From: Candidatus Multivorans sp.
GTDB taxonomy: Bacteria; Acidobacteriota; Thermoanaerobaculia; Multivoradales; Multivoraceae
DNA: 64,000 bases
Assembly (NCBI GenBank): GCA_965224025.1
Contig: OZ245033.1
Coordinates: forward strand, 2,656,001 to 2,720,000
Direction: 5' to 3'
Shown: piece by piece, positions 38,995 through 57,156 of the stretch
How positions within the stretch are numbered: the stretch's first letter is position 1
How the letters are laid out: the number at the start of each line of letters is the position of its first letter
Notes under the pieces: model-generated
The model's input: only the letters and a program-made list of their open reading frames with translations
Told to the model about the DNA's origin: nothing
Databases searched by the model: none
Made by a program: the position numbers and the translations under genes

Positions 38995-40086
38995 ATGAGA
39001 ACGCATGAACGCTTGAACGTCGGATGGACTGTGGCTGTTGTCTCTGTACTGCTGGTTCTTGCCCTTTCCGGCGGCGCGACCGCTGCGGGCAACAACCCCA
39101 ACAACGCCGCCAAGGACGCCGACTGGACCATGCCCCGCACCGGTTCGGGCCACCCCGACCTCCAGGGAGTATGGGCGAACAACAACGCCACGCCGTTGCA
39201 GCGCCCCGCCGCCTGGGCCGGCAAGGAACGCCTGACGGACGCGGAGCTTCAGCAGTTGGTGGCCGCGGCGGCCGAGGCGACGAACCCGGGCGCCGACGCC
39301 CTGTTCGGCGACCAGCTCGTCCTGGCTGCCATCGCGCGCACCGAGGCCACCTCCTACGACCCGACGACCGGCAACTACAACCAGTTCTGGATCGCGGACC
39401 GGGATTGGACGAACCGCACGTCCCTGGTCATCAATCCGCCCGACGGCCTGATCCCGCCCTTCACCGAGCCGGCGAAGAAGCGTCTCTGCAAGCGGGTCAA
39501 GCACCTGATGGAGCACGCCGCCGACTCATGGCTGGACCGCCCGATTCCCGAGCGTTGCATCAGCTACGGCGCTCCCTTCATCTTCCCGGGCTACAACGGC
39601 TACCACCAGGTCTTCCAGAGCGAGGACCACGTCGTGATTCACCAGGAGATGATCCACGACGCGCGGGTCATCCCGCTCGACGGCCGGGCGCAACTGGACG
39701 AGGACGTGCGACTGTGGAACGGCGCCTCCCGCGGTCGCTGGGAGGGCGACACCCTGGTCGTCGAGACGACGAACTACTCGGAGAAGAACGACTTCATGGG
39801 CTCCTCCGAGCAGCTCGCGATCACCGAGCGCTTCACCCTCACCGGGCCGGAAACCCTGGAGTGGGAAATCACGGTCAGTGACCCGGGCACCTGGACCGAG
39901 CCCTGGACCGCGTCGATCCCGCTCAAGCGCACTGAGGACGCGATCTTCGAGTACGCCTGCCACGAGGGCAACTACGCCATGGAGGGCATGCTCGCCGGCG
40001 CCCGCGCGGAGGAGGCGTCGGACAAGCCGAAGCAGCTCGACCCCGGTGCCGCGTTCCGGTACCCCGGCCTGATCTGCGACTTCTGA
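38995..40086 (+). CDS. Conserved secreted hypothetical protein (PDLQGVW ... EYACHEGN type)
   Basis: Signal peptide; GHPDLQGVW, RTSLVINPPDG, ERCI, GRWEGDTLVVETTN, FEYACHEGNY. Confidence 0.8.
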   Translation: MRTHERLNVGWTVAVVSVLLVLALSGGATAAGNNPNNAAKDADWTMPRTGSGHPDLQGVWANNNATPLQRPAAWAGKERLTDAELQQLVAAAAEATNPGADALFGDQLVLAAIARTEATSYDPTTGNYNQFWIADRDWTNRTSLVINPPDGLIPPFTEPAKKRLCKRVKHLMEHAADSWLDRPIPERCISYGAPFIFPGYNGYHQVFQSEDHVVIHQEMIHDARVIPLDGRAQLDEDVRLWNGASRGRWEGDTLVVETTNYSEKNDFMGSSEQLAITERFTLTGPETLEWEITVSDPGTWTEPWTASIPLKRTEDAIFEYACHEGNYAMEGMLAGARAEEASDKPKQLDPGAAFRYPGLICDF

Positions 40087-40106
40087 TCGGTCCGACCTTT
40101 CGTTGA

Positions 40107-40275
40107 GCTTTCGGCTCCAGGCTCGCGCCAGAGCAGGGCCAACAGTGCCGAGGCATCGAGGAGGGCCCGAGTCACCTCAGTCTCGTGCCGCCTCCCGGCG
40201 TCGCTCGGCGATGAAGGCGTCGACTTCGCTTCCCGATGAACCTGTGCCGTACTTCCGAGCAAGCGCCTGGGCTTG
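40107..40275 (-). pseudogene. Remnant of a vapBC-type TA pair (antitoxin C-terminus plus PIN N-terminus)
   Basis: 40275-40177 reads QAQALARKYG...EVDAFIAERRREAARD*; GTG 40175 reads MTRALLDASALLALLWREPGAE, then similarity ends. Confidence 0.7.
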
Positions 40276-40430
40276 TCACGCGGAATGGTATGGCGCCCGG
40301 CTGTACCACGGGAGTGAGAGCAGCTGCCAGTCGCTTGGGCCAGCGGTCAGCACGGTGGAGGGACGGACGAGGGTGACCATACCGTCGCTCCACCGTGCGT
40401 CGCCCGTTGTCGGCGGGTCGGTCGACCCGG

Positions 40431-40727
40431 CTACATACAGATGGTCATGCTCTGGAAGGTCAGGTACATCCCGATGGCGGTCAAGACGGGGGAGCCGACA
40501 ACCTGGCCAGCGGTAGTAAACACCGCTCCGGCAACCGAGTTGGTCCTGCAACTGTGGCGCCGCGCTCCTCCGACCACGCTCGTCAGGTCGGTGGCCGTGA
40601 AGCGGTCGAGGCCATCGTGGCCGATAGTCGATGGTCCGCCCGCTGTCACGGCGTCAGGCGGTATGGCGAAGGAAGCGCCAACGTTCAACACCAGGGCGAT
40701 CAGTGCAATAGCTGAGAATCTCGTCAT
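40431..40727 (-). CDS. Small secreted precursor peptide 1 (signal + GG-type leader + Cys-bridged hydrophobic core)
   Basis: AAAGGA RBS; signal ending GASFA; leader GLDRFTATDLTSVVGG; core ending ICM; paralogous to 41918-42211. Confidence 0.72.
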   Translation of the reverse strand: MTRFSAIALIALVLNVGASFAIPPDAVTAGGPSTIGHDGLDRFTATDLTSVVGGARRHSCRTNSVAGAVFTTAGQVVGSPVLTAIGMYLTFQSMTICM

Positions 40728-40899
40728 GTCCAGGGTTCCTTTCGGTTGTAGAGGATTCGGCAGTCAAGCGGTGGAGGCGGCCGGTAGGCATCTCTCGGCC
40801 CACCTATGGACCAAGACGGAATGGGCGCGGCTGGATTCGTCTCGTGTCCTCGCGTTGCTCAAGGGAAGACGGGCTGCCCGGAAGGAGCGCTATGCATGT

Positions 40900-41592
40900 T
40901 CAGCCGCTGAGCATCTGCTCGCGGCGCTCCGCGCGGGCGAAGGTGAGCGCGATGATGGCGGTAATTATGAGCGCGTAGCCGATGCGGTTCCGGACGGCCA
41001 TCGCGAGCAACTGCTCAGCGTCGGCTCCTTCCACCGTGAGCGGGTTCCAGAACGGCGAAATGCGGAACAGGAACGGGAGTAGGGCAGGCACGCTGACGGC
41101 CAGGCCGAATAGCCCGATGGTTGCCAGGGCGCCGGAAGTCTCGCTGCGGAACAAGGCAGCGAAACCCATGGTCAGTGCCAGACAGAAGACGGCTCCTTGC
41201 GCGGCGCCGTAGAGGGTCTGGAAGACTGGAAAGGCGGTGAAGAATGCGAATGTGAGCACCGCCATCAGGCTCAGGCTGGCAAGCAGGATGAGGCCCGCGG
41301 CGGCGAGCTTCCCAAGCCAGACTCGATGGGCGCCGCCCGGTACGGTGTAGGCGATCTCCAGGGTGTGCTCGTCGAGTTCCCCGGCGATGATCCGGCCGCC
41401 CAGAAACACGGCAAGAGCCGACACCGGCATGCCGATCAGGATGTTCTGGGCTGCGGCGGGTTCAAACCCGGTCTGGCGGGCGGTAACCAGCAAGACCGCC
41501 TGCACGGCAAGCCACGGAAGCGGCAGCAGTGGCAGCAGCCAGTACCGCGGGCCCCCGAGCAGCACGGCGGAGAGACGGATGATGGTGATCAC
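40900..41592 (-). CDS. ABC-2 type permease-like membrane protein (paralog 2)
   Basis: About 6 TM segments; I.GELDEHTLEIAYTVPGG, FRISPFWNP; clearly paralogous to 42472-43161; GTG start 41592. Confidence 0.85.
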   Translation of the reverse strand: MITIIRLSAVLLGGPRYWLLPLLPLPWLAVQAVLLVTARQTGFEPAAAQNILIGMPVSALAVFLGGRIIAGELDEHTLEIAYTVPGGAHRVWLGKLAAAGLILLASLSLMAVLTFAFFTAFPVFQTLYGAAQGAVFCLALTMGFAALFRSETSGALATIGLFGLAVSVPALLPFLFRISPFWNPLTVEGADAEQLLAMAVRNRIGYALIITAIIALTFARAERREQMLSG

Positions 41593-41917
41593 GCCAGAGT
41601 TCCGAGGGTCGCCAGACCGGGGCGGACATGTTTGGGTTCGACGCCAAGGAGCGATTGCTGCGAAAGAAGAGTTGGGAGTGACGCGAGGGCGACGAATACC
41701 AGCGGTGTCCACGCGACGCAGCCGACCGCTGATCGGCGCGTCCGCGTCGTCAGAGGCCCGGCGGCCGGTCCGACGTGGCATCCCGGTTGGTTCACTGGAC
41801 GTCGCCCTCGCGCCCACGCGGGAGGAAGGATATTGGCCCACCGGCGCTCTCGGAAGAGAGAATCCTCATCAATACGATCGCGTGTAGACTCTCGGGTGGC
41901 GCCGGTGGAGAGATTGG

Positions 41918-42211
41918 TTACACGCAGATAGCACCGACAAGGCCGAGGCCGGCACCCTGCCCGATTGGATCCCCTGCGATGGTGGCGGCTACGAAGAGCA
42001 GGTAGCCGAGACCCTTGACGGCCAGAGTGCAAGCTCCCGACCGCCACCCTTCACCGGTCACGGCGACCATGTCGGCATCCGTGAGTTGTTCGAGCCCGGG
42101 ATTGTCCGCGCCCGATGTGTCGCCCGCCACGGCCGTGACAGGGGGTTCTGCGAAGGCGCCGCCGACGCTCAGCACAAGCGCTGCCACTGCGAGAGTTAGA
42201 ACTTTCTTCAT
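41918..42211 (-). CDS. Small secreted precursor peptide 2
   Basis: AAAGGA RBS; signal MKKVLTLAVAALVLSVGGAFA; leader GLEQLTDADMVAVTG; core ending ICV. Confidence 0.78.
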   Translation of the reverse strand: MKKVLTLAVAALVLSVGGAFAEPPVTAVAGDTSGADNPGLEQLTDADMVAVTGEGWRSGACTLAVKGLGYLLFVAATIAGDPIGQGAGLGLVGAICV

Positions 42212-42471
42212 GATTCCTGGTTCCTTTCCGTTTCATTGGTTTGTGTTGCCGTCGACCCCGTTCGGAGAGGCCGACGACGCTGGTAGGCGGTGAGGTCCGG
42301 CGGAAGCCGAGAAGGCTTCGCAGGTCCGGCGACCCGCAGCGCCTCGTGGCGCCGCAGGGACTGTGCCCGCCTATAGACCTAAGACGGAATTCGGAGCGGT
42401 TCTTGTCGCGAGGAACCTGAGAGGGGGGCTGGGTGGCGGTGGATGCGTGTCAGTCGATGGCGGAACCCGGC

Positions 42472-43161
42472 TCAGCCACCGAGCATCTTCTCCCGCCGTT
42501 CCGCTCGGGCGAAGGTAAGTGCCACGATGGCGACGATCGCGAGTGCGATGCCAATACGGTTCTGGACGCTCATGGCGAGCATCCGCGCCGCGTCGGCGTC
42601 CTCGATCGCGAGCGGATTCCATAGCGGCGAAATGCGGAACTGGATAGCGCCGAAGCTGGTGATCAAGCCGTTTAGGCCGAGGAGGCCGATCGTGGCCAGG
42701 GTACCGGCGACCTCGCTGCGGAACAGGGTGGCGAACCCCATCGCGGCAACGAGGTAGAAGACGACTCCCTGGCCCGCGCCGTAGAGGCTCTGGAGGACGG
42801 GGAAAGAGGTGAAGAAGGCGAACGAGACGGCCGCCATGAGAATCATGCTGGAGAGCAGGATCAGGATCGCGGCCGCGAGCTTGCTTAGCCAGACGCGATG
42901 GGCGCCTCCCGGCACGGTGTAGGCAATCTCCAGGCTGTGCTCGTCGAGTTCGCCTGTGATCGTCCGCCCACCCAGGAAGATGGCAAGGACTGCTACCGGC
43001 ACGCCGATCAGGGTGTTCTGGGCCGCCGCGGGCTCGAGCGTGGGCCGTCCCGCAAGCAGTAGCGCTGCCTGGATCGTCAGCCAAACGAGGGGCAGAAAAG
43101 GCAGCAACCAGTAGCGCCGCCCGGCCAGCAGCACCGCGGAGAGACGCAGCACGCCGATCAC
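42472..43161 (-). CDS. ABC-2 type permease-like membrane protein (paralog 1)
   Basis: About 6 TM segments; GELDEHSLEIAYTVPGG; GTGA-coupled to the upstream fusion gene. Confidence 0.85.
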   Translation of the reverse strand: MIGVLRLSAVLLAGRRYWLLPFLPLVWLTIQAALLLAGRPTLEPAAAQNTLIGVPVAVLAIFLGGRTITGELDEHSLEIAYTVPGGAHRVWLSKLAAAILILLSSMILMAAVSFAFFTSFPVLQSLYGAGQGVVFYLVAAMGFATLFRSEVAGTLATIGLLGLNGLITSFGAIQFRISPLWNPLAIEDADAARMLAMSVQNRIGIALAIVAIVALTFARAERREKMLGG

Positions 43162-46100
43162 GCCGGGGTTCCACCGCGCGCCGCCCGCGCCAGCCAGAGG
43201 TAGCCGTCCTCGAGCGTGGGTTCGACCGGTTCGGCGCGTTGATCGGGGCGATCCGCGGCCAGCACGCGCAGGCGGCTGCTGCCGTCGGGCTCGGGTTGGC
43301 GATCAGCGAGCACGGACGTCTGGGGCAGCTCCGGCTCTTCATCTCCGGGCGCCGTCCAGGACCAGACGCGGCCTTCTGCCTCCCGGGACAGCGCCGCCGG
43401 CTCGCCGTCGAACACCATGCGGCCGCCGGTGAGCACCAGCACGCGCTCGCAGGCCACGGCCACGTCCTCGACGACGTGGGTGGAGAAGAGGACGATGCGG
43501 TCCTTGGCCAGGCGCGAGAGCAGGTTGCGGAAGCGGACGCGCTCGCGGGGGTCGAGACCGACGGTCGGCTCGTCGACGACGATGATCGGCGGCAGGCGCA
43601 GCAGCGTGCGGGCCACCGCGACCCGCTGCCGCATGCCGCCGGAGTAGCCACCGATCGGTTCGTCCGCGCGCTCGTCGAGTCCGACCTCGCGCAGCAGGGA
43701 CGCAATGCGCTCGGCTCGCTCCGACGCCTCGATCTGGTAGAGCGCGGCGTAGTACTCGAGGTACTGGCGGGCCGTCAGGCGCGCCGGCAGGCCGGCGTCC
43801 TGCGGCAGGTAGCCGACGTAGCGGGCCAGCCGCTTCCGGACGCTGAGCAGCGGCACGCCGCCCAGCGTGATCCGGCCGCGGGTCGAATCGAGAATGCCGG
43901 TCACCTGGCGGAGCAGGGTCGTCTTGCCGGCACCGTTCGGACCCAGCACGCCGACCATGCCTCGCTCGACTTCGAAGCTCACCGCGGCCAGCGCCTTCAC
44001 CGTGTCGATCGGCAGGTCGAGGCCGAAGATCCGGCTTGCAACCGCGCGCCAGAGGCGGATCAACATGCCGCGCCAGCCCCGTGTGCGCCGCTGGCGCGCC
44101 TCTCGCTGCTCCCGGCGCACCGTCTCGAGGCGCGCCGTGCGACGTCCGAGTTGGATGAAGAGAGTGATGGTGGAGAGGATGGTCACGACGACGAACCCGC
44201 CCACCGCGGGTTCGCTCGCGAGAGCCGGACCGGCGAGGCCCGCGAGAAGCGCCCAGGGCAGCAGGGCGGACAGCACGCCCTCGATGCCGCCCGGCTCGAC
44301 TCGTCCGAGCGCGTCGGCCCGGCCACGGGCACGCCGGACCTCGGTCAGCAACCGGGAAGCGATCAGCAGTGCGGCGATCCAGGCGCCCAGTTGGATCAGG
44401 TCGGCACGAAACCTCAGAGCCATGGCGACCGCGCCGGCGAGCAACAGGAGCAACGGCGGGATGCATTCCCGCGCGTCGGCGGGGTGGAACGCTTCACCGC
44501 CGCGGTCGACCACCTGCCTGGCGAAATCGGTCGACGCCCGCAGCGCCCGGCGCACCGGTCCCGCGAGGCCGTATGTCTTGCGCAGGTGGCGGACCACGAG
44601 GCGGGGCGGTCCGGCGCCGGCCTCCGGCTCCGGCGTCGGCGGCTTCGGCACCAGCCACACGGCGAGCCCGAGCAGCGCGCCGGCGATGAGGACCGTCGTC
44701 GTGATCTGCCAAAGCATGGACTCGATCACGCCGAGCACGAACAACGGGGCGGTGGCCGCGATGACCGCGCCGAGCCAGGTCAGCACCATCCAGGGTCCGA
44801 CGCGGCTGAACAGGTCGTCCAGGCGGCGCAGAAAGACGTAGCCGACCGGGATGACGAGCAGCGTGAGCACGGTCGAGGTCAGAAGACCGCCGATCACGAG
44901 TGTCGCGAAGGGCGGCCAGATCTCGTTCTCGCGTCCGGTGGCGATGGCCAGCGGCGCCAGCGCCGCGATTGTTGTCGCGCTCGTCATCAGCACCGGACGC
45001 GCGCGCTCCCGAACCGCGGCCAGGGCGGCGGCGCCGGCGCTCCAGCCGGCGCCGAGTACACGCTGCTGCATCCGGTCGACGAGCAGGACGGCGGGATTCA
45101 CCGCCAACCCCAGCAGGACGAGCGCCCCGAGCAGCGCCATCGGATCGAGCCCGATGCCTGAGAACATGAGCACCCACAGCGAGCCGAGCAGGGCCAGCGG
45201 CAGGGCCAGCAGGACGAGGATCGGCAGGGTCATCGATTCGAACGCCACCGCCAGAACCAGGAACACGAGCATCACGACCGGGCCGAGGACGCGCCGGAAC
45301 CAGCTCGTGTTCTCGTCCGAGCGGTCGAGCTCGATTGTCGTTCCGGGCGGGCGGTGGACGCTGGCGAGGGCCTCGTCCAGGTTGCGGTCGAACTCCAGCC
45401 GGGCCGCTCCGCTGCTTGGTACGTCGGACGAGACGCTGTAGATGACCTCCCGCTCGCGGCGGCCGTTGTGGTGGGTGATCACCGGGGAAGCCGGCGCGCG
45501 GCGGACCTGCGCCAGCGCCGCCACCGGCAGCACGCCGGCGCCGGTGGAGACGCGCAGCCGGGACAGGCCACTGAGCGACACTTCGCGGTCAGGACTCATC
45601 CCGTCTTCGGGCGTCGCGTCGCTGGGCCGAGCTTCCAGGCGTTGGACGACGATCGGAAGCTCGCGGCCGCTCGGAAGCGGGAAGCCGCTGTTGATGCTCG
45701 TGCCCTCGCGGCCGGCGAGATTCAGCATCGGCAGCACATCGTCGAGCAGCACGCCGAAGGTGTCGAAAGCGCGCCGGTTCGGGCTGACGTGGATCTCCTC
45801 GGGGCCGGGTCGCGAGGAGGGGAAGGCGCCGCTGATCCCCTCGATCTCCTTCAGCCGCTCGGCAACCTCGGCAGCGAGACCGGTCAACTGATCGTTGTCG
45901 TTTCCGGACAGGATGACCTTTTGGGGGCCGCCGCCGAGCAACTCCTGGGCGCCGCCCCCGCCGCCGGGGCCGCCGCCGCGACCGCCCGGGCCTTCGCCTT
46001 CGCCGGGTCGCAGAATCTCGGTGCCGGCGCGCCGGTTCGCGGCCCTGCGTACGAGCTGACGGATTCGCCGCGCGGTCAGTTCCTCGGGACGGTCCTCGAG

Positions 46101-47975
46101 GGGCTCGAGGTGCACCGTCAACGAGCCCCCCTCCTCGCGGATCATGCTTTCGACGCGGTCCACACCGTCGACTTCATGAACCGCTTCCAGGGGCTGAAAG
46201 GCGCGCACCGCGGCATCGAGCGAACTGCGGCTCTCGTCGAGGCGCACCGAGAGCTGGACCTGGTCTGCGATTTCTGCGTCCGGCGACACCGTGTTTCCGA
46301 GCACAAAGGGCAGGGCCACGAGCGCGGTGACGACGACGGCGAGAGCCACCGACGTGACCCAGCTCGCGGGCCGCCTCAATGCCGAGGCGAGAACTCCCGC
46401 GAACAGGATGCGGGTCGGGTCGGGCGGCGCCTGTCCGGCGAAGCGTTCGCGTCGCCGGCGCAGTCGGTCCAGCCGGCGGATTGCCGCGGGCGCGGCCAGA
46501 TGGCGGGCCAGCAGCGGTACGAGACCGATCGCCACCAGCAGGGAACCGAACAGCGGCAGCAGGATCGAGAGGGCGGCGATCGCGATCAGGTTGCGGATGA
46601 ACGACGATCCCAGGTCGACGAGCAACGGCGGCACGAACACGACCGCGGTGGTCACCGACGCGGCGATGATCGCGCGGGCGGTGCGACGAATGCCCCCCGC
46701 CGCGGCGTCGTCGGGACTTCGTCCTCGTTCGAGGCGCCGCTGGACGGACTCGAAGACGACGACGCTGTTGTCGACCAGGAGGCCGACCCCGACCGCCAGG
46801 CCGAAGAGGCTGATCAGGTTCAGCGTCTGGCCCGCCAGATAGAGGAAAGCCAGGGCCGAGGCCAGACTGACCGGCACGGCGATGGCGACAACCGCCACTG
46901 CCCGCCACTGTCGGAGGAAAAGGAACAGGACGGCGAGAGCGATCAGGAAACCGGTCAGACCGAGTTTCTTGAGCCGGTCGATCTGGGTCTCGACGAGCTC
47001 CGCGGCGTCGAAGCTGCTCAGCAGGCGAATGCCCAGCGGCTGGAGATCTTCGTTGATCTCTTCGATTCGGCGGCGGAGGTCGCGGCCGAGGCGAACCAGG
47101 TTCGCACCCTCTTCCTGGAGCACCATGACTCCGACCGAGGGGTCGCCGTTGACCCGGAACAGCGTTTGCCGCCGGCCGGGGCCGACCTCGATTTCGGCGA
47201 CGTGGCGCACCAGGGCCGGCCGGTCCGGCACGATCCGGACTTCGCCCATGGACACCGGCCCGATCGGGCGGCCGTCGAGCATCACCGCCATCCTCCCGGC
47301 CTCGTCCTCCAGGCTGCCGAGGTAGCGCAGGCGGCCGGCCGCGGCGCGCACCGCCGCCGTCACCTGCTCCGTGGTGACGCCGAGCGCGGCACAGCGGTTC
47401 GGGTCGACCCAGACGGTCAACTGGCGCGCCGCGCCGCCGCCGACCATCGCCTGGCTGACGCCCGAAACCGCGGCCAGCCGCGGAGTGACGAGTTCGTCGA
47501 CCAAACCGCGCAGGGCGTTCTGATCGGCCGCGCCGGTGACCTGCAGAACCATGGCGAAACTGGAAAGAAAGCCGGTGTCCTGGGACTGGACATCGAGGAA
47601 GGCATTCCGCGGCTGGGTGCGGGCCAGGTCCGCGGCGATCCGGCGCACCTCCAGCTCGCGCACCTTCAGGTCGACGCCACGCTCGAAGAGGATCGTGAAG
47701 CTGCCGCCGGAGCCGATGACCTCGCCCCAGGTTTCGGCGACCCGCGGCAGGGTCCGTACCCGGGCCTCCAGAGGCATCAGGATCTCCCGCTCGATGGTCT
47801 CCGGTTCGCTGCCCGGGCGGAAGAAGTTGACGTAGAGCTGGTCGCCGGTCAGGGCGGGGAAGAGTTCCACCGGCAACCTTTGCCATGCGAACAGCCCCAT
47901 GATCACCAGCCCCAGGAAGAACATCGCCACGGCGACGGGGCGGCGAATGGCGAGGGTGTCGAGACCGGCTCTCAC
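43158..47975 (-). CDS. RND (AcrB-like) permease fused to a C-terminal ABC ATPase
   Basis: RRPVAV, LPVELFP, GLLVDNSVVV, RARPVLMTS; then GPNGAGKTT, SGGMRQR, VDEP and STH in one 1605-aa ORF. Confidence 0.9.
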   Translation of the reverse strand: MRAGLDTLAIRRPVAVAMFFLGLVIMGLFAWQRLPVELFPALTGDQLYVNFFRPGSEPETIEREILMPLEARVRTLPRVAETWGEVIGSGGSFTILFERGVDLKVRELEVRRIAADLARTQPRNAFLDVQSQDTGFLSSFAMVLQVTGAADQNALRGLVDELVTPRLAAVSGVSQAMVGGGAARQLTVWVDPNRCAALGVTTEQVTAAVRAAAGRLRYLGSLEDEAGRMAVMLDGRPIGPVSMGEVRIVPDRPALVRHVAEIEVGPGRRQTLFRVNGDPSVGVMVLQEEGANLVRLGRDLRRRIEEINEDLQPLGIRLLSSFDAAELVETQIDRLKKLGLTGFLIALAVLFLFLRQWRAVAVVAIAVPVSLASALAFLYLAGQTLNLISLFGLAVGVGLLVDNSVVVFESVQRRLERGRSPDDAAAGGIRRTARAIIAASVTTAVVFVPPLLVDLGSSFIRNLIAIAALSILLPLFGSLLVAIGLVPLLARHLAAPAAIRRLDRLRRRRERFAGQAPPDPTRILFAGVLASALRRPASWVTSVALAVVVTALVALPFVLGNTVSPDAEIADQVQLSVRLDESRSSLDAAVRAFQPLEAVHEVDGVDRVESMIREEGGSLTVHLEPLEDRPEELTARRIRQLVRRAANRRAGTEILRPGEGEGPGGRGGGPGGGGGAQELLGGGPQKVILSGNDNDQLTGLAAEVAERLKEIEGISGAFPSSRPGPEEIHVSPNRRAFDTFGVLLDDVLPMLNLAGREGTSINSGFPLPSGRELPIVVQRLEARPSDATPEDGMSPDREVSLSGLSRLRVSTGAGVLPVAALAQVRRAPASPVITHHNGRREREVIYSVSSDVPSSGAARLEFDRNLDEALASVHRPPGTTIELDRSDENTSWFRRVLGPVVMLVFLVLAVAFESMTLPILVLLALPLALLGSLWVLMFSGIGLDPMALLGALVLLGLAVNPAVLLVDRMQQRVLGAGWSAGAAALAAVRERARPVLMTSATTIAALAPLAIATGRENEIWPPFATLVIGGLLTSTVLTLLVIPVGYVFLRRLDDLFSRVGPWMVLTWLGAVIAATAPLFVLGVIESMLWQITTTVLIAGALLGLAVWLVPKPPTPEPEAGAGPPRLVVRHLRKTYGLAGPVRRALRASTDFARQVVDRGGEAFHPADARECIPPLLLLLAGAVAMALRFRADLIQLGAWIAALLIASRLLTEVRRARGRADALGRVEPGGIEGVLSALLPWALLAGLAGPALASEPAVGGFVVVTILSTITLFIQLGRRTARLETVRREQREARQRRTRGWRGMLIRLWRAVASRIFGLDLPIDTVKALAAVSFEVERGMVGVLGPNGAGKTTLLRQVTGILDSTRGRITLGGVPLLSVRKRLARYVGYLPQDAGLPARLTARQYLEYYAALYQIEASERAERIASLLREVGLDERADEPIGGYSGGMRQRVAVARTLLRLPPIIVVDEPTVGLDPRERVRFRNLLSRLAKDRIVLFSTHVVEDVAVACERVLVLTGGRMVFDGEPAALSREAEGRVWSWTAPGDEEPELPQTSVLADRQPEPDGSSRLRVLAADRPDQRAEPVEPTLEDGYLWLARAARGGTPA

Positions 47976-50900: not shown

Positions 50901-51183
50901 CGGTGCGGGCCACCTGGTGAACCTCGCGGAGGCCGCGCACCGTGAACAGGCGCTGCTCGACCTGCTCGCCGTAGAGCCGCTCCATCTCGGTCGGCGGCCG
51001 GTCGCCGGAACGCACGGCGACGACGATGGTCGGCGAACGCAGGTCGGGCAGGAGGTCGATCGGCAGTTCGCGCCACGACATCCAGCCCACCAGGGCGAAG
51101 GCCAGGGCGGTGACGGTGACCGCTACGGGCCGGCGCGCAGCCAGGCGGGCGGGACCGAAGGTCTCACCGGATGTTCGAGTCAT
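47989..51183 (-). CDS. RND (AcrB-like) efflux permease
   Basis: RRPVAV, LPIDLLP, GMLVDNAIVVVE, RLRPILMTT. Confidence 0.93.
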   Translation of the reverse strand: MTRTSGETFGPARLAARRPVAVTVTALAFALVGWMSWRELPIDLLPDLRSPTIVVAVRSGDRPPTEMERLYGEQVEQRLFTVRGLREVHQVARTGRLIATVRFDWDADMDLALIEVQKAVNPVAADPEVDEVLVRQLDPRQSPVITLGLAAEPEGPDLAELRRLARRQVAPAMEQLADVAEVRVLGGRDLEVRVRVDRYRLQAFGVTLNQLEQRLVAENVDIDAGTLEDGGQVYLVRGISRFRNSRDVERVVVRYRTQQVGGGQQVRQPIRVSDVAEVELAHAEIDHLVRVNGREGVGLQVFKEAGANTVEVSRTVRAALDDLERDLPRVSVSMVNDDAALVEDAMDDLLNAALIGIALAVVVLALFLRSLGPTVVVASAVPVSLFVALFAMRLWEHSLNIITLAGLALGAGMLVDNAIVVVESIHRRHRPGASAADTAARGTGEVAGAIAASTLTTCVVFLPVLFVQGLAARLIEGIAFTVTASLGASLAVAIMLIPALSRWLLPRAKPETAAPEATEEASEAATTGTTADPDEDEARPLGWAFGAVERLVLSLLRLRWLVVATAVLAAAGGVHVLLGLGSELLPPADPRQFSVRMVGPPGQRVEATAGAVATLEEAVRQAAGEHLEAIQAEVGRLPEDDRLVTTELTEENTARLLVRMSAEGPTGGQIVAALQPNFEDLPGTEIEWEVGASALSRALGSAGPPIVVEIAGQSLPDLRLAATRLRDALAAQSELWNVRSSFEGGPPELRIELDRAMADGLGVGLETIARVLQSALDGRRVTLLSTGDEERHVVLSLPQPRPEELAELRFTSNAGADLALGQVARFVPAEGAREVFRRDQRRVAQVTARVAEDSDYPRAVAAAGEAIAATDLPSGLGVRLAGEEEERERAVGELRWAGLLALVLVLMVLAGTFESLLQPLTVLFSIPLALVGVACTLGFLGRPVGVMALLGLIVLAGVAVNDAVLLIATARRLLAAGMERHAALARAAAIRLRPILMTTLTTVLVLAPLALGAGEAAELRSPMAYTIIGGILTSTVGSLLVLPCLYLILDSMRLTRRRRAPAGA

Positions 51184-51222
51184 CGTGCCGGGCTCCGGTG
51201 GTCAGAGCTGCCGAATCGGCTC

Positions 51223-52329
51223 CTATTGGGAGACCCGGACGCGTGTACCGTCGGTCAGGGTCTCGAGACCGCGTACGACGACCCGCTCGCCGAGCTCGAG
51301 CCCCTGGCGAATCTCGGTGATCTCGTCGTCGCCGAGGCCGAGAACGACTTCGCGCCGCACCGCGCGCTGGCCGTCGAGGACGAAGACGACGCGCCGGCCG
51401 CCGCGCTCGGTAACCGCCTCGCGCGGAATGACGGGGACGTCGTTTCGCTGCTCGACGACCAGGGTCACTTCGACGAACATGCCCGGCCGCAGCAGGCCGC
51501 CGGGATTGCGCACGGCGACCTCGGCGCGGAAGGTGTGGGCGACCGGGTCGACCTCGGGGGACAGGCGAACGACCGCGCCTGCGAACGTCTGGCCCTCCCA
51601 GGCGAAGTGCCTGAGCCGGCCCTGCTGCCTGGGGTGGACCCGCGCCAGTTCGGGGCCCACGAGGTCGATGTCGGCGACCAGGGAGTCGACCGGAGCGATC
51701 CGGGCCACCTGGAAGCCCTGGGAGACGAGCTGGCCGTCGGCGATCGGCATGCCGTTCGGGTCGCGCGCGAGTTCCATCAGCACACCGCCGATCGGAGTCA
51801 GCATCTTCGCGCGGTCCTCGGTCAGGAGGCTCTGCTCCCAGGTCGCCTTCGCGTCCTCGAGCGCGATCTCGGCGCGGCGCAGTTCCTCGGCACTGATCAG
51901 TTCCTGCTCGAACAGCTTGGCGCGGGCGTCTCGTTCGGCCTCGGCGCCCAGGTAGGCCTGGTGGGTTGCTTCGACCCGGGCCGCAAGGCGTGCGTCCTCG
52001 CCGGTGACCTCCGCGATCATCTGGTCGGGGACGACGCGGTCGCCCTCGGCCAGCCGGTCGCCGGAACCGTTGCGGCCGATCAGCAGTCTCCCGGGCGTTT
52101 CGACCTGCAGGACGATGCTCTCGGCCGCTCGCAGAGTGCCGGTGGCGACGATCAGATCCTCGACGCTGCCGGTTTCGACCTCGGCCGCGGTGACCGGCAC
52201 CAGGAAGTCGACGGGGTCCGTGCTGCCGCCGCCTTCGCAGGCGACGATCGCGGCGCAGGCCGCAATCGCAATTGCGAGGCCCGCGCGCCGGAAGTTGGCG
52301 GTCGGGCGGGATGGCTGCCGCGCGCTCAT
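51223..52329 (-). CDS. RND periplasmic adaptor (MFP), lipoprotein
   Basis: Lipobox IVAC; TPIGGV, LRPGMFV, VIPREAV, GLELGERVVVRG; ATGA overlap with the upstream gene. Confidence 0.92.
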   Translation of the reverse strand: MSARQPSRPTANFRRAGLAIAIAACAAIVACEGGGSTDPVDFLVPVTAAEVETGSVEDLIVATGTLRAAESIVLQVETPGRLLIGRNGSGDRLAEGDRVVPDQMIAEVTGEDARLAARVEATHQAYLGAEAERDARAKLFEQELISAEELRRAEIALEDAKATWEQSLLTEDRAKMLTPIGGVLMELARDPNGMPIADGQLVSQGFQVARIAPVDSLVADIDLVGPELARVHPRQQGRLRHFAWEGQTFAGAVVRLSPEVDPVAHTFRAEVAVRNPGGLLRPGMFVEVTLVVEQRNDVPVIPREAVTERGGRRVVFVLDGQRAVRREVVLGLGDDEITEIRQGLELGERVVVRGLETLTDGTRVRVSQ

Positions 52330-55300
52330 GGCCCCGCGCCCCCGGTCTCGGCACGGCCGGCGGCGGCGCCGTTGTCGAGCCGCACGAAGCGCACGGCGTC
52401 CGCGGCGACCGCTCTGCCGGAGGTCTCGTCGCTCAGGACCAGTTCGGTCGGGCCGCCGGCCAGATCGAAGTCTCCGAGCACCGCCCATCCGGTTCCCGCG
52501 GCCGCGGCGTCGAAGTCGATCGGCCGGGAGACGCCGCCGTTCTGCAGTTCGAGGTCGTAGGTACCGAGATTCAGGCCCAGGTTCACCGAGATCCGCACGC
52601 CGTCGCCGTCGTTCCCTCTTCGCTGAGCGTTTCCTCCATCGTTGCCGACCCGCACTTCCCGACGCACGCCCGCGGCGCCGGCTGGCAGCGGCGAGAGCGA
52701 CGGTACGTGCAGTTCGACTCGCCAGCGGCCGTCTGCCGGCAACTCCGTCCGGTAGATCGCGCGGCTGGTCCCTTCGCCCGCTGGCGCCAGGGCGGTCGTG
52801 CGGCGGTAGCGCCCCCAACTCGTGGGCTGTTCGTAGCGCGACCATTCTGTCGGCGTTCCGCCGAAGCTCTGGTAAACGAGCAGGCCCTGATCCGTCTGGT
52901 TCGACGGTGCGAAGAAGCCGGCGAGACCGCCCTGCAGCCGGAAGCCGCCGGTATCCGCTTCATCCGTCTCGATCGAGAAGCCGGGGTCCAGGTCGTCGAC
53001 GACGACCATGTCGGTCGCTGATCGCAGGAAGGCGGGCAGCCAGTCGGCCGGTCGCGTGCCGCGTAGCGGTTCGGCCTCGACGATCGATTCGTCGTCGACA
53101 TCAGGCAGATCGATCGGGAACTCCCGGCGGTTCAGCGACAGATACGGGGAAGCGAGCATCCTGCCCGGCGCCCTGGACGTGACCAGGCCGAATTCGACGG
53201 AGGTGTTTCCCGGGATCAGAGTTGGCTCGCTGGTCTCCCAGCGCACCCCGCTCGGTGCGCGAACGGCGTAGCGGAGCCGGAAGAGGCCGGGCGCTTTCTC
53301 GCCGTTGTGGACGAAGAGACGGGTCTGGTACTGCGGCAGGCCCTGGTCGTCGTCCGCCAGCCGCACGAGTTCGGCTGCGGAGACGACGAAGCCGGGCAGG
53401 TCGGTCTGGTGGAGGAAGTCGCCGACCAGGCCGGCGAGGTCCACGCCGGCTTCCTGAGCGGCCCGTTCGAGGTCGGCGGCGGTGAAGGTCGAGCCCCGGT
53501 GGTCGCGCATGAGGTTGGCGATCATCGCGGCGGTCCGTTCCCGGCCGGCGCCGTCCAGGATTGCGGTGGCCAGGGCCGAGGTCTTCAGGTAGAGCGCGTT
53601 GAGCGCCTTCTTCGGCTCCTCTTCGACCTCCATTTTCGTCAGCGAGGCGCCGAGCACGGCGTCCCAGACTTCGGGGCGGTCCGTGAGGCTCCTCACGATC
53701 GAACTGGAGATGGGTGCGCCGCCTCCGCCGAGCTGGCCCAACACGGCGCCCTGTACCACGCTGCCGATCGTCCAGCCGAACTCGCGGTCGAACAGGTGGG
53801 CCGAGAAGTACGATTCGCCGCCGCTCACCAGCCGGTTCACCAGGTTGTTGCACAGTTCGTCGAGCGCCAGCGCCTCCGGACCGCGGGCGGCGGTCTGATA
53901 CAGGAACAGGTTGCGGATGCCGCCCACCTCCACGTTGCCGCCCGAGAAGTCGTTGCGGAAGAACTGCTGCAGTCTGAAGGCCTTTGCCCGCGCCAGACCG
54001 CCCTCCTGCTCCTCGAACTGCTCAGGGTTGCGGAACGGGAACTCGAAGCGAGCGGTCGGCAGGCTGCTCTCGCTGATCAGCACCATGCCCGGCGGTGCGC
54101 GCTCGGTGTCCATGCGCCAACCGCCGCCGTAGGAACGCAGCGTCCAGGGCACTTCGACCAGGGTGAGTTGGCGGTAGGGGTAGGGCAGACCGAGCTCGCG
54201 GGCAGTGGCGAAGCGCTCGGCGGCGACCGCTTCGATCTCTTCCCTGGCATCGGCGAAGAACTCCACGTTTCTGAGATGGCGGGGGTGGACGAGCAGTTCG
54301 ATCTCGACGCCCTCGATCTCCGTCGTCCGGCGATCGAACCGTCCGGCGATCAGGGCCGCTTCAGGCACGACCCCCACCGGTGCGAACCGTTGCCGGTCGC
54401 CTGCCGCCTCGCCTCTGCCTGGCCCGGCGACCGTCCAGCCCGAGGGGGCGCCGACCTCCAGGTCGAGTTCGAAGAAGTCTCTGGGACGCCTTCGCGGATC
54501 GGCGAGGCCAACTGAAGCGCCGGGGCGTGGCAGCCAGGCCAGCGCGGCGGGCAGCGCGACGTAGCGACGCTCCGCAAAGCCGTTCAGGGCGCCGAGAATG
54601 ATGATCTGCGCGTCCTGGAACTTGATCCGGTTGAAATCGATCGCGGAATCCAGGTGGGCGAAGCGAAGGTCAGGCCGTCCGTGGGCGCGCAGGCGAAGGT
54701 CGACGGCTTGGCCCGCGGCCTGCGAGCGCCCGAGGTCGACTTCGAGCAGGCCGGCGCCGTGGTTGAAGGCGAGCGGCGCGCCGGCAGAGTCCTCGACGGC
54801 ATCGACGTCAAGGCCGGGGTTCAGGCTGAAGAGGGCCCGCGAACCTCCGGCGGCGAGGAACCGGACGTTGACGTCGAGGGTCAGACGACCCCGCGGTTCG
54901 ATGTCGACGGAGCCGTGGATCCGCTCCAGGTCAAGGACCGGTTCCTCCTGACGTTCCGCGTGGGCGATCCGCCAGTCGTCGATCTCGTCGACCTGGTTGG
55001 TGGCGGTCACCGCGGCGGCCGCGATCGTGCCGATGGCCGCGACCAGAAGGCCGGCGCCGGCGGTGGCCCACAGGCGTCGCCGGGCGTCGTCGAGCCGGGG
55101 ATGGACGGCGACGGCGACCGCAAGCAGACCAACGGCCAGCGCCGCGACCGTGGCCCGGTTCATCAGGTTCAGGGCGGTCCATATCTGGGGCGCGACTTCG
55201 GACGGATTGCTGCCGAAGCCGCCCTGGAGCGACAGGATGGGCAGGATGTAGGTCGGTACGCGGAAGGAGAGAATCCATGGACCGATGGCCAGCCCGAGGC

Positions 55301-55874
55301 CAAGAAGCGCGGCCACCAGGCGGTTGCGGCTCAGGAGCGACGCCACCTGGACGAAGGCGATGGTCATGGCCAGCGCCGGCAGCGCCTCGGTCAGCAGGTA
55401 GGCCCAGACGGAACTCCAGATCGCCGGTTCGCCCACGTACCAACCGAGCGCCACTCCGAGATGGCCGAAGCCCTGGATGAGCATCATGCCGATGAAGGCG
55501 ACGCCCCAGATCAGGATCAGGGCGCCCAGGAACCTGCCCAGGACGAGTTCCGCGTTCGAATAGGGCCGGCTGTCCAGGACCTCGATCACGCGGTCGCGCC
55601 GGTCCCGTGCGCGCACGTCGAAGGCCAGAAAGACGACGCCGATCGCCAGGACCATCGTCTGGATCGAACCCATCTGGGCGAGCAGGAACTTCGGGCTGAA
55701 CGAGCCGACCGTCGCCGACCAGGACGAGAAGAGGCCGTGGATAGCCCAGTAGTAGCCGTACGACAGCAGGCCGATGAGGATTGCAAGGCCCGAGAACAAC
55801 CAGAAGCGGAACAGCCGGCGGATGGTGCGCATCTCGGCGCGGGCCAGGGACCAGACGGCGGCGAGTGAGATCAC
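52326..55874 (-). CDS. ABC permease fused to a degenerate M1-aminopeptidase-like ectodomain and a C-terminal carbohydrate-binding-like beta domain
   Basis: About 7 TM segments with RDRRDRVIEVLDSRP; FSLNPGL, PYPYRQLTLVEVP, YLK; no HExxH; tail GWAVLGDF...AADAVRFV; GTG start 55874. Confidence 0.78.
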   Translation of the reverse strand: MISLAAVWSLARAEMRTIRRLFRFWLFSGLAILIGLLSYGYYWAIHGLFSSWSATVGSFSPKFLLAQMGSIQTMVLAIGVVFLAFDVRARDRRDRVIEVLDSRPYSNAELVLGRFLGALILIWGVAFIGMMLIQGFGHLGVALGWYVGEPAIWSSVWAYLLTEALPALAMTIAFVQVASLLSRNRLVAALLGLGLAIGPWILSFRVPTYILPILSLQGGFGSNPSEVAPQIWTALNLMNRATVAALAVGLLAVAVAVHPRLDDARRRLWATAGAGLLVAAIGTIAAAAVTATNQVDEIDDWRIAHAERQEEPVLDLERIHGSVDIEPRGRLTLDVNVRFLAAGGSRALFSLNPGLDVDAVEDSAGAPLAFNHGAGLLEVDLGRSQAAGQAVDLRLRAHGRPDLRFAHLDSAIDFNRIKFQDAQIIILGALNGFAERRYVALPAALAWLPRPGASVGLADPRRRPRDFFELDLEVGAPSGWTVAGPGRGEAAGDRQRFAPVGVVPEAALIAGRFDRRTTEIEGVEIELLVHPRHLRNVEFFADAREEIEAVAAERFATARELGLPYPYRQLTLVEVPWTLRSYGGGWRMDTERAPPGMVLISESSLPTARFEFPFRNPEQFEEQEGGLARAKAFRLQQFFRNDFSGGNVEVGGIRNLFLYQTAARGPEALALDELCNNLVNRLVSGGESYFSAHLFDREFGWTIGSVVQGAVLGQLGGGGAPISSSIVRSLTDRPEVWDAVLGASLTKMEVEEEPKKALNALYLKTSALATAILDGAGRERTAAMIANLMRDHRGSTFTAADLERAAQEAGVDLAGLVGDFLHQTDLPGFVVSAAELVRLADDDQGLPQYQTRLFVHNGEKAPGLFRLRYAVRAPSGVRWETSEPTLIPGNTSVEFGLVTSRAPGRMLASPYLSLNRREFPIDLPDVDDESIVEAEPLRGTRPADWLPAFLRSATDMVVVDDLDPGFSIETDEADTGGFRLQGGLAGFFAPSNQTDQGLLVYQSFGGTPTEWSRYEQPTSWGRYRRTTALAPAGEGTSRAIYRTELPADGRWRVELHVPSLSPLPAGAAGVRREVRVGNDGGNAQRRGNDGDGVRISVNLGLNLGTYDLELQNGGVSRPIDFDAAAAGTGWAVLGDFDLAGGPTELVLSDETSGRAVAADAVRFVRLDNGAAAGRAETGGAGP

Positions 55875-55888
55875 TGTCGGGCCCTCCT

Positions 55889-55917
55889 GGGAACGCGGGC
55901 GTCTCGCCCGCATCCGG
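55889..55917 (+). repeat. REP-like family B copy
   Basis: gggaacgcgggcgtctcgcccgcatccgg inside the export operon. Confidence 0.85.
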
Positions 55918-55944
55918 CTCGGGGCCAGACCACGGCGAGCGGCA

Positions 55945-56952
55945 TCACGGTTGAGCCTCCTTGCCGGACACGCCTCCGTCGGGTGGCGCTGTTGCGCCGG
56001 GAGACCCTGGGCCCTCCAAGTCTTCGGCAAGTCCGGCGCCTTCGCTCTCGCCGAAGTGCTTCTCGGTCACGATGGCCTCGGCGCGGCCGCGCGCGACCAT
56101 GAAGGCGAGGTATCCCTCCTCGAGGGTCGGCGACGAGGCGATCCGGGCGTCCGCCGGCACGCCGCCGGGCGCCGCGACGCCGCGGTAGGTCGTTTCGTTC
56201 ATGCTGGCGGTGCGCGAGACGATCTCGAAGCCGCCCTCGGGTTGCGGCGCGGATGTCGGCAGGGTCAGCTCGAAGACTTGGCCCTGGGCGCGCTCGAGCA
56301 GGCCTGACGGAGAGCCGCGAAAGACGATCTTGCCCGCGTCGAGCAGGGCGAGGTCGCTGCAGCCGGTACCCAGGTCGGCGACGATGTGGGTAGAGAGGAT
56401 GATCGTCCGTTCGCGGCCGAGGTTCGCCATCAGTTGGCGGAAGCGCAGGCGCTCCTCGGGATCCAGGCCGACCGTGGGTTCGTCGACCACCAGCAGGCGG
56501 GGTTGGTGGATCAGCGCCTGGGCGATGCCGAGGCGGCGGGTCATGCCGCCGGACAGCTTCTTCACCTTGCGGTGGGCGACCTCGCCGAGGCCGACGCTGT
56601 CGAGGACGGAGTCGACCCGGGCCCGGCGGGCGCCGCGGCCGTCCAGGCCCGAGAGCTCGGCCAGGGTGTCGAGGACTTCCTCCACGCGGTGCAGGCGCCA
56701 GGCGCCGAACTCCTGCGGAAGGTAGCCCAGGTGTGCGCGGACGCCGCGTCGCTGAGAGACCACGTCGTGGCCGAAGACCGTTGCCGCCCCGCCGCTGGGC
56801 TTGAGCAGCGTGCAGACGATCCGCATCAGGGTGCTCTTGCCGGCGCCGTTGGGGCCCAGCAGACCGAAAAGGCCGGCGCCGATCTCCAGATCGACGCCGT
56901 TGAGGGCTACTGTGCCGCCGCGATAGACGTGGCGGAGGCCGCGGGCGGCCAC
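55945..56952 (-). CDS. ABC transporter ATP-binding protein
   Basis: GPNGAGKST, LSGGM, VDEPTVGLDPEER, STH, PTLEEGYL. Confidence 0.94.
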   Translation of the reverse strand: MAARGLRHVYRGGTVALNGVDLEIGAGLFGLLGPNGAGKSTLMRIVCTLLKPSGGAATVFGHDVVSQRRGVRAHLGYLPQEFGAWRLHRVEEVLDTLAELSGLDGRGARRARVDSVLDSVGLGEVAHRKVKKLSGGMTRRLGIAQALIHQPRLLVVDEPTVGLDPEERLRFRQLMANLGRERTIILSTHIVADLGTGCSDLALLDAGKIVFRGSPSGLLERAQGQVFELTLPTSAPQPEGGFEIVSRTASMNETTYRGVAAPGGVPADARIASSPTLEEGYLAFMVARGRAEAIVTEKHFGESEGAGLAEDLEGPGSPGATAPPDGGVSGKEAQP

Positions 56953-57156
56953 TGTCGTCGTCAGAGTTGTCTCCTCCCGAAAGGTCTATACGGATGACAG
57001 CGGTGCATGGTTTACAAGGCTCTGAAGCCGAGATCTCGGTTCGCTTGCGATGAAACTCAGCCCTGTGGCTCGGCGTACGTCCTATAGTATGCGGGCGCCG
57101 GCCCGGACACTCTTTCCGACAACATCTCTGGACACCCCCCAACGGAGGCTTCAAGA

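Follow-up and report, generated by a model that had tools for sequence, protein, structure and literature searches.

Can a permease of the resistance-nodulation-division (RND) type and the ATPase of an ATP-binding cassette (ABC) transporter be parts of one natural protein and, if they are, what would ATP be used for? The question is raised by the gene P0001, found in a stretch of 64,000 nucleotides from the acidobacterium Candidatus Multivorans sp. (GenBank assembly GCA_965224025.1, contig OZ245033.1, positions 2,656,001 to 2,720,000). This whole stretch is the window referred to below; its first letter is position 1, and all features lie on the minus strand unless stated otherwise. P0001 (43158..47975) is a single open frame of 1605 amino acids (aa) in which an AcrB-type RND permease is followed by the nucleotide-binding domain (NBD) of an ABC transporter.

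One polypeptide from two transporter superfamilies

The domain order of P0001, read from the N-terminus, is the RND permease, two transmembrane (TM) helices, the first strand (beta1) of the NBD, an insert with four TM helices, and the remainder of the NBD. The permease body (44829..47954, aa 8-1049), delimited by Pfam ACR_tran and by alignment to solved RND pumps, belongs to that family (PF00873) with an E value of 1.2e-141 and 473.9 bits (cut-off 28), and the match is full-length, spanning model positions 4-1020 of 1021. Toward the C-terminus, aa 1331-1471 match ABC_tran (PF00005; E 6.7e-27, 95.2 bits, cut-off 25). For the narrower families of NCBIfam the scores fall well short. Against the multidrug RND subfamilies NF033617 and NF000282 the fusion scores 361.1 and 321.2 bits, below the cut-off of 1250, and the best matches of the fused NBD are GldA (167.1 bits, cut-off 402.6) and DrrA (162.2 bits, cut-off 312.45), both also below. 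The fused RND permease has a Gly-rich low-complexity loop (GEGEGPGGRGGGPGGGGG...) in its second periplasmic half, at about 45900-46030 (aa 650-690), and the family consensus has a Gly run as well.

The same architecture was recovered wherever complete relatives could be read. We searched for homologs with aa 1055-1605 of P0001 as the query (proteins of 882-2809 aa), and the best 120 matches listed all contain PF00873 together with PF00005, mostly in proteins of 1570-1610 aa, with identities down to 52%. Every one of the 110 listed homologs of at least 1300 aa has the strand motif L-x-V-x-x-L-x-K-x-Y at 212-227 residues ahead of Walker A. Automatic annotation names members of the family “ATP-binding cassette domain-containing protein,” “efflux RND transporter permease subunit” or “AcrB/ABC-type multidrug transport system ATPase subunit,” so the fusion sequences are already public. 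Three of the fused homologs (P0065, P0068 and P0072, 1840-1876 aa) also match the sigma-70 region 4 families PF04545 and PF08281; this part is either an upstream extracytoplasmic function (ECF) sigma gene merged in gene calling or a true triple fusion.

When the 276-aa linker/insert region was compared with 401 genomes of the same phylum (its own included), matches appeared in 24 of them, again counting its own, and 20 were strong; they sit in open frames of ca. 1590-2340 aa or at contig ends. All nine other genomes of the genus match, and among the genomes listed from other families of the order none of eight does. A pattern scan with one genome per species returned 124 stretches, 99 of which encode relatives, so that about 99 species genomes are represented. 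Their record titles are mostly those of metagenome-assembled genomes (MAGs) of Acidobacteriota, namely, Candidatus Multivorans, Thermoanaerobaculia, Holophagales, Vicinamibacterales and Polarisedimenticola, and the others are Pseudomonadales and further Gammaproteobacteria, Candidatus Azotimanducaceae, Desulfobacteraceae and Fidelibacterota, several as complete chromosomes. The fusion family is confined to uncultured bacteria, chiefly Acidobacteriota MAGs. A profile of the linker/insert region run against 1.84 billion cluster representatives gave only 59 matches at E ≤0.001. Ten have at least 1500 aa, and all of these are RND-ABC fusions with the region at about residues 1030-1330; the remaining 49 are shorter, mostly fragments. 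Since the full-length matches are all such fusions, the insert is known solely within the RND-ABC fusion.

Among shorter homologs, unfused forms were looked for by reading 14 N-termini out of the 120 proteins listed; one, P0197, was set aside as a gene call joined to a LysR gene. In none of the other 13 does beta1 stand directly before beta2, as it would in an unsplit NBD. Ten begin within the insert or just ahead of beta2 and resemble cut gene calls, and P0176 begins just ahead of beta1. P0128 (539 aa, on a 14.9-kb contig) and P0160 (563 aa), whose contigs measure 11-15 kb, have their start at the first extra TM helix or shortly ahead of it; they may be natural split forms, i.e., a free-standing C-terminal module, or frameshifted assemblies. 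Contigs from public sequencing runs cover P0001 in pieces, none spanning the whole gene, with no indel in runs X1-X3. One contig of X1, a run that is possibly the source sample and not independent, matches 44633-44853 over the junction between the RND part and the extra TM helices with 0 differences, and one contig of run X5 has a 1-base insertion at 45501 (depth 18.5 of 56.2). The listing of public runs containing the locus included no RNA run. P0001 is a genuine single polypeptide, and it is conserved.

An NBD interrupted by a membrane domain

Past TM12 of the RND part there are two hydrophobic peaks (aa 1063-1081 and 1091-1109), which correspond to two extra TM helices (44652..44795, aa 1061-1108) linking TM12 to the first NBD strand. 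This strand, beta1 with the adenine-stacking A-loop Tyr, is RLVVRHLRKTYG (44568..44603, aa 1125-1136). Then comes the membrane insert of 189 aa (44001..44567, aa 1137-1325), with TM peaks at aa 1171-1189, 1193-1211, 1234-1252 and 1258-1276. The remainder of the NBD (43161..44000, aa 1326-1605) begins with VKALAAVSF (aa 1326-1334) and contains Walker A GPNGAGKTT (43917-43943, aa 1345), the signature YSGGMRQR (43623-43646, aa 1444), Walker B IIVVDEP (43566-43586, aa 1464) and the H-loop STH (43476-43484, aa 1498), and it ends in a C-terminal domain like that of TM_1403 (Foldseek and VIA matches). In the AcrB topology the C-terminus of the RND permease is cytoplasmic. Because the numbers of TM helices are even, two before the strand and four in the insert, both the strand and the rest of the NBD would be cytoplasmic, as the RND C-terminus demands.

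All the motifs expected of PF00005 are present (Walker A, Q-loop, signature, Walker B with the catalytic Glu, D-loop and H-loop); the domain is not contiguous, as 189 residues with four TM helices part beta1 from beta2. Conservation was read from an alignment of 81 sequences covering the C-terminal 551 residues, at 36-93% identity to the window protein. The strand motif has the same L, K, Y and G in 81 of 81 sequences, and equally invariant are the A-loop Tyr, Walker A, the Q-loop Gln, Ser-Gly-Gly and Gln of the signature, Asp-Glu of Walker B, the D-loop Asp and the H-loop His. Judged by these residues, the fused ATPase, which is of the ABC-2 type, is predicted to be catalytically competent.

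The AlphaFold2 model of the C-terminal module, built with the same alignment, has a mean predicted local distance difference test (pLDDT) of 85 and a predicted template modeling score (pTM) of 0.72. The extra TM pair forms helices H7-26 and H33-54 (pLDDT 92-95), and module residues 72-81 (aa 1126-1135) form a strand, with a block pLDDT of 93 when the NBD is included; in a control fold without the NBD the same residues do not make a full strand and the pLDDT drops to 65. The VIA alignments to whole NBDs begin at model residue 70 and chain residue 1-2. As nearly all residues of LptB are aligned and the alignment starts at the detached strand, the model places this strand in the beta1 position. 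The free ATPase of the same locus, P0004, has 37% identity to the fused NBD in an alignment that begins at its residue 16; since it aligns from there only, its N-terminal strand (LRHVY...) corresponds to the detached LRKTY strand. Conservation and modeling together indicate that the fused NBD is complete, with beta1 and its A-loop Tyr predicted to fold back onto the domain despite the insertion of four TM helices. The insert itself is modeled as an amphipathic helix, two TM helices, a cytoplasmic loop, two further TM helices and a second amphipathic helix leading into beta2, and the loop carries the nearly invariant sequence RRARGxADxxGxxxPGGxE.

For an insertion in this part of an NBD, the nearest precedent is the regulatory insertion of CFTR, which sits between the first two strands of NBD1, so that an extra segment is found near the N-terminus of the NBD in both proteins. 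The CFTR insertion has ca. 30 disordered, soluble residues, whereas that of P0001 has 189 residues and four TM helices and is strongly conserved. In published work the CFTR segment is described as disordered and at the N-terminal end of NBD1 (PMC9825563).

Much of this had been proposed by a first-pass annotation of the window, which described one RND-ABC reading frame that physically joins the two transporter superfamilies, with the NBD fold split after its first strand by a membrane insert of ca. 190 aa and the signature, Walker B and H-loop intact. That description holds. The frame is open for 1605 aa and Pfam finds both domains in it, and the covalent fusion is real and conserved, with no stop or frameshift seen between the two parts and with homologs that are consistently fused. 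The split is borne out by conservation and by AlphaFold2, which models as helices the roughly four hydrophobic segments once noted (four peaks were found); the three motifs were located and are invariant in the 81 sequences, and the coordinates of motifs and insert proved exact on recheck.

The gene cassette and a predicted permease for the fused NBD

P0001 belongs to a cassette with all its genes on the minus strand, in the order free ATPase, giant ABC-2 permease, adaptor, second RND permease, fusion and small permease. The free ABC ATPase, P0004 (55945..56952, 335 aa, Pfam ABC_tran E 3e-29), is the first gene. The giant permease (52326..56030, 1234 aa), whose true start is probably near 55913-55874, combines an N-terminal ABC2_membrane_2 domain, a soluble region of ca. 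890 aa and Golvesin_C; in its look-alikes from the Atlas, an ABC-2 permease is likewise combined with large domains of an enzymatic or binding kind. Overlapping its stop is the periplasmic adaptor, or membrane fusion protein (51223..52329, 368 aa), with a lipoprotein-type signal and a match to Pfam HlyD_D23 (E 1.2e-15). The longest open reading frame (ORF) in the adaptor slot, 51164-52354 (minus strand), was discarded as the wrong frame, having an Arg-rich translation and no family match. The second, unfused RND permease, P0002 (47989..51183, 1064 aa, Pfam ACR_tran E 3.5e-198), has 32% identity to the RND part of the fusion, and its best solved match is MdtB. Adaptor (51223-52329), P0002 and P0001 stand in a row, i.e., the cassette has the gene content of a heteromeric pump with two paralogous RND genes. 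The last gene, P0003 (42472..43161, 229 aa), codes for a small ABC-2-like permease with six TM helices, and its GTG start overlaps the TGA stop of the fusion (GTGA).

The arrangement is widely kept. The order of ATPase, giant permease, adaptor-sized gap, second RND permease, fusion and small permease was seen in nine of the nine loci fetched, with fusion identities of 45-80%, and a homolog of the giant permease was located 8-12 kb upstream of the fusion in all 13 further genomes. Outside the Acidobacteriota it was upstream of the fusion in three of five genomes, so that overall the free ATPase and the giant permease adjoin the fusion in 25 of 27. Of the two exceptions one is the complete chromosome G401, and the other, the Fidelibacterota locus L136, is masked by 1300 N, its seemingly truncated gene being unreadable. 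In two genomes the giant permease is tandemly duplicated upstream of the fusion (G406:C1:465217-472137 and G412:C1:1582679-1589579). Some genomes have two copies of the fusion, as with L055 and L062 on one chromosome or L059 and L064 in one MAG, and the L055/L062 genome has a single giant-permease homolog at E ≤1e-30, adjoining L055.

P0003 is the candidate partner of the fused NBD. Its orthologs have an invariant L-E-I/V-A-Y-T-V-P-G-G between TM2 and TM3. When the 551-aa module was modeled together with P0003, the median ipSAE (interaction prediction score from aligned errors) was 0.65, the best of three controls giving 0.00, and the runs agreed in at least 82% of contacts, with a partner pLDDT of at least 77. 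Among reference cases, 116 of 157 solved complexes attain this mark, against 2 of 215 mismatched pairs, counts that are only approximate with custom alignments. In the confident interface, P0003 residues 1-15, 74-93 and 223-227 meet the Q-loop groove of the NBD (module residues 302-360, 402 and 406 plus, from the detached strand, 81-82), and the stretch 74-93 includes the invariant LEIAYTVPGG motif. As modeled, the docking is the canonical coupling of a type V ABC permease to its motor. The fused NBD is predicted to have an ABC-2-like permease of its own, P0003, translationally coupled to it.

Two other relationships of P0003 were tried and rejected: homology to the insert of P0001 had an hhalign probability of 0.6%, and BLASTP gave no match to the N-terminal part of the giant permease. 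By eye, L-x-K-x-Y-G-x-P-G-P around the detached strand (alignment A2, 71-93) resembles L-E-I-A-Y-T-V-P-G-G of the small permease (A3, 71-93); the profile comparison was not significant. A paralog of P0003 (40900..41841, 313 aa with an N-terminal extension) follows 630 bp downstream, with 68% identity in the shared part, and several other genomes have just one permease downstream, which is nearer to this paralog than to P0003. The G+C content is ca. 0.65 across 40000-43000 versus 0.70-0.74 in the cassette. At the other end, the ORF 57151-58152 (minus strand) was rejected for its odd translation and lack of a family, and the true upstream neighbor is probably 57157-58641 on the plus strand, which has weak, sub-cut-off matches to Cu2_monoox_C, EF-hand and cytochrome c. 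Since this neighbor is divergently transcribed, the cassette seems to begin with the free ATPase.

The proton relay and the possible role of ATP

The AcrB-type proton relay consists of two Asp in TM4, a Lys in TM10 and an Arg in TM11. Aligned to solved pumps, the fusion has D-N for D-D in TM4 (“VDNS,” 46764-46775) and N-P for K-N in TM10 (“NPAV,” 45087-45098) and retains the TM11 Arg. P0002 has D-N in TM4, N-D in TM10 and the TM11 Arg, its Asp lying one past the position of AcrB K940 (“AVNDAV”). The absence of an AcrB-type relay extends to unfused paralogs of the same genome. From this genome 12 RND loci were extracted and 11 read (L116 was left out); the TM10 Lys is found in none of the 11 (one has Arg), TM4 D-N in five, and TM10 is N-N in four and N-D in four, N-P being restricted to the fused subunit. 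All 107 long fused homologs have the TM4 Asp and D-N, and 100 of these 107 have the TM11 Arg motif; the P0002 orthologs have D-N in 10 of 10. Because D-N without Lys also occurs in unfused pumps of the same genome, it is the local norm for them and does not point to a loss of proton drive.

The reading that we favor, with a probability of roughly 0.5 and on the basis of sequence and structure models, is that a heteromeric RND pump carries a tethered ABC-2 export module, with an ATP-dependent step ahead of a proton-driven RND step. The fused NBD and P0003 would form an ABC-2 (type V-like) export module, which probably acts together with P0004 and the giant permease and which would be held in the membrane next to an RND pump made of P0001 and P0002 and served by the one adaptor. 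ATP would power the first step, in which an envelope or secreted substrate is extracted or flipped out of the cytoplasm or the inner leaflet, and the RND part, still proton-driven through the TM4 Asp and the TM11 Arg, would hand the substrate on across the envelope. Through the insert, the NBD would be anchored in the membrane by its nucleotide-sensing A-loop edge, next to TM12 of the RND part, and both cycles could be synchronized in this way.

Several observations weigh against this reading. P0003 matches Pfam ABC2_membrane_2 with an E value of 0.001 and 18.9 bits, under the cut-off of 27.2, and its paralog likewise stays below it (E 5.7e-05). The modeled docking is canonical, and its good score may partly echo solved NBD-permease complexes, reflecting likeness and not binding; among the confident contacts of P0003 listed for the complex model, none is with the six extra TM helices. 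In the complete Pseudomonadales chromosome G401 the second RND permease, the fusion and the small permease are together with no free ATPase or giant permease nearby, so that the four-protein ABC module is not obligatory in cis. A family search of the window ORFs found no gene for an outer-membrane factor in the cassette. The N-P of TM10 removes from the fused subunit a polar or charged relay position that is kept as Asp in P0002, and this leaves room for a non-proton role. Finally, RND pumps work as trimers but ABC motors as dimers, and the mismatch leaves stoichiometry a difficulty. The two RND paralogs could settle it: the NBD dimer might come from two fused subunits, or a single fused subunit might pair with the free ATPase.

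Another view, which we hold to be unlikely, takes the fusion as co-localization only, in the manner of a Rosetta-stone protein: two independent transporters of the same pathway without mechanical or kinetic coupling, the insert being a tether. Fusion of neighboring genes is common in operons, each half has its own complete set of parts, and the possible split form P0128 begins exactly at the first extra TM helix. However, a plain tether needs no insertion within the NBD fold, the spacing from strand to Walker A is narrow (212-227) and the loop motifs are conserved across 36-93% identity, and all the full-length members found stay fused.

It is quite improbable that the transporter is dual-energized, with the nucleotide-sensing strand linked by membrane helices directly to TM12 and with ATP driving or gating the RND cycle of a subunit that misses half of its proton relay through the N-P of TM10; a mixed trimer with P0002, 2:1 or 1:2, would then resolve the mismatch between trimer and dimer. 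Just as doubtful is a regulatory NBD, in which ATP gates or assembles the RND pump as an energy sensor, or the ABC part is a mechanotransducer that acts on periplasmic partners by way of the soluble domain of the giant permease. The ca. 890 aa of non-membrane sequence and the Golvesin_C domain of that permease, together with the large enzymatic or binding domains of its Atlas look-alikes, would suit such a role, but the invariance of all the catalytic residues fits a working motor better than a sensor.

The first-pass annotation had gone further, proposing from D-N in TM4 and the missing TM10 Lys of both RND subunits a possible ATP-energized RND pump. In this reading the NBD would drive the RND cycle through TM13-18, wired to TM12, replacing or supplementing the proton gradient. 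There is a covalent path from TM12 through two TM helices to the A-loop strand, conservation is strong in the insert and in its cytoplasmic loop, and the fused RND part has a single acidic relay residue (TM4 D-N, TM10 N-P for K-N), with an N-P that is unique among the 11 paralogs of the genome. The residues themselves were read correctly, as the alignment to solved pumps agrees, and covalent coupling and the split NBD have been borne out; the step from the relay to ATP has not. The same pattern is also seen in unfused pumps of the genome, the TM4 Asp (107 of 107) and the TM11 Arg motif (100 of 107) are conserved in the long homologs, P0002 keeps an Asp in both TM4 and TM10, the coupling groove of the NBD is predicted to be filled by P0003, and the literature searched offered no precedent, which makes this proposal very doubtful. 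The annotation also had the fused NBD pairing with the free ATPase at 55945, which may be so; that gene and the giant permease adjoin the fusion in 25 of 27 genomes but are not near it in G401. That a mis-assembly or a sequencing frameshift joined two genes, for which nothing was found beyond the lone inserted base at 45501 in one X5 contig, is refuted in practice by the conserved architecture, present in independent assemblies and several complete chromosomes down to 35% identity; the X1 contig crosses the RND/extra-TM junction unchanged.

In comparison with known systems, the RND part resembles AcrB/MexB and MdtBC in its full-length ACR_tran match and its alignment to solved pumps, and the cassette resembles mdtABC in having two paralogous RND genes behind one adaptor gene. 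It differs from AcrB and MdtBC by the 555-aa C-terminal extension of the fusion (six TM helices and an ABC NBD), by D-N for D-D in TM4 with N-P (fusion) or N-D (P0002) in TM10, by RND scores (361 and 542) that stay far under the NCBIfam multidrug cut-off of 1250, and by having no outer-membrane factor gene. The fused NBD is akin to the ATPases of DrrAB, GldAFG and NosDFY (solved ATPases TM_1403 and NosF), with GldA and DrrA as its best NCBIfam matches, and a small permease of six TM helices follows it, as in ABC-2/type V systems, whose N-terminal helix and TM2-TM3 loop are the parts predicted to touch the NBD. These systems have separate ATPases and permeases, whereas here the NBD is joined to an RND permease and interrupted after beta1, and the fused NBD and P0003 fall below the GldA/DrrA and Pfam cut-offs, respectively. 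MacB, of the ABC-driven tripartite pump MacAB-TolC, has its own four-TM domain and periplasmic domain and no RND component; P0001 instead joins the ABC motor covalently to an RND permease and has membrane helices within the NBD sequence. In a full-text literature search, with most subscription journals outside its coverage, neither an RND-ABC fusion nor an ATP-driven RND pump nor Candidatus Multivorans turned up. The parts (RND permease, ABC-2-type ATPase, HlyD-type adaptor) are known in kind; the architecture is not.

RND pumps, driven by the proton gradient, and ABC transporters, driven by ATP, are the textbook examples of separate energization of export, and a conserved natural fusion allows their coupling to be asked about directly. 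If the dual-energized reading were true, P0001 would be the first case of ATP coupling in an RND pump. The fusion might further reveal how a motor that works as a dimer is fitted to a pump that works as a trimer. The insert shows that the NBD fold tolerates a whole membrane domain between its first two strands, which bears on NBD folding and on the communication of NBDs with membrane domains. For the bacteria that carry it, the cassette may represent a pathway of envelope export that has not yet been described.

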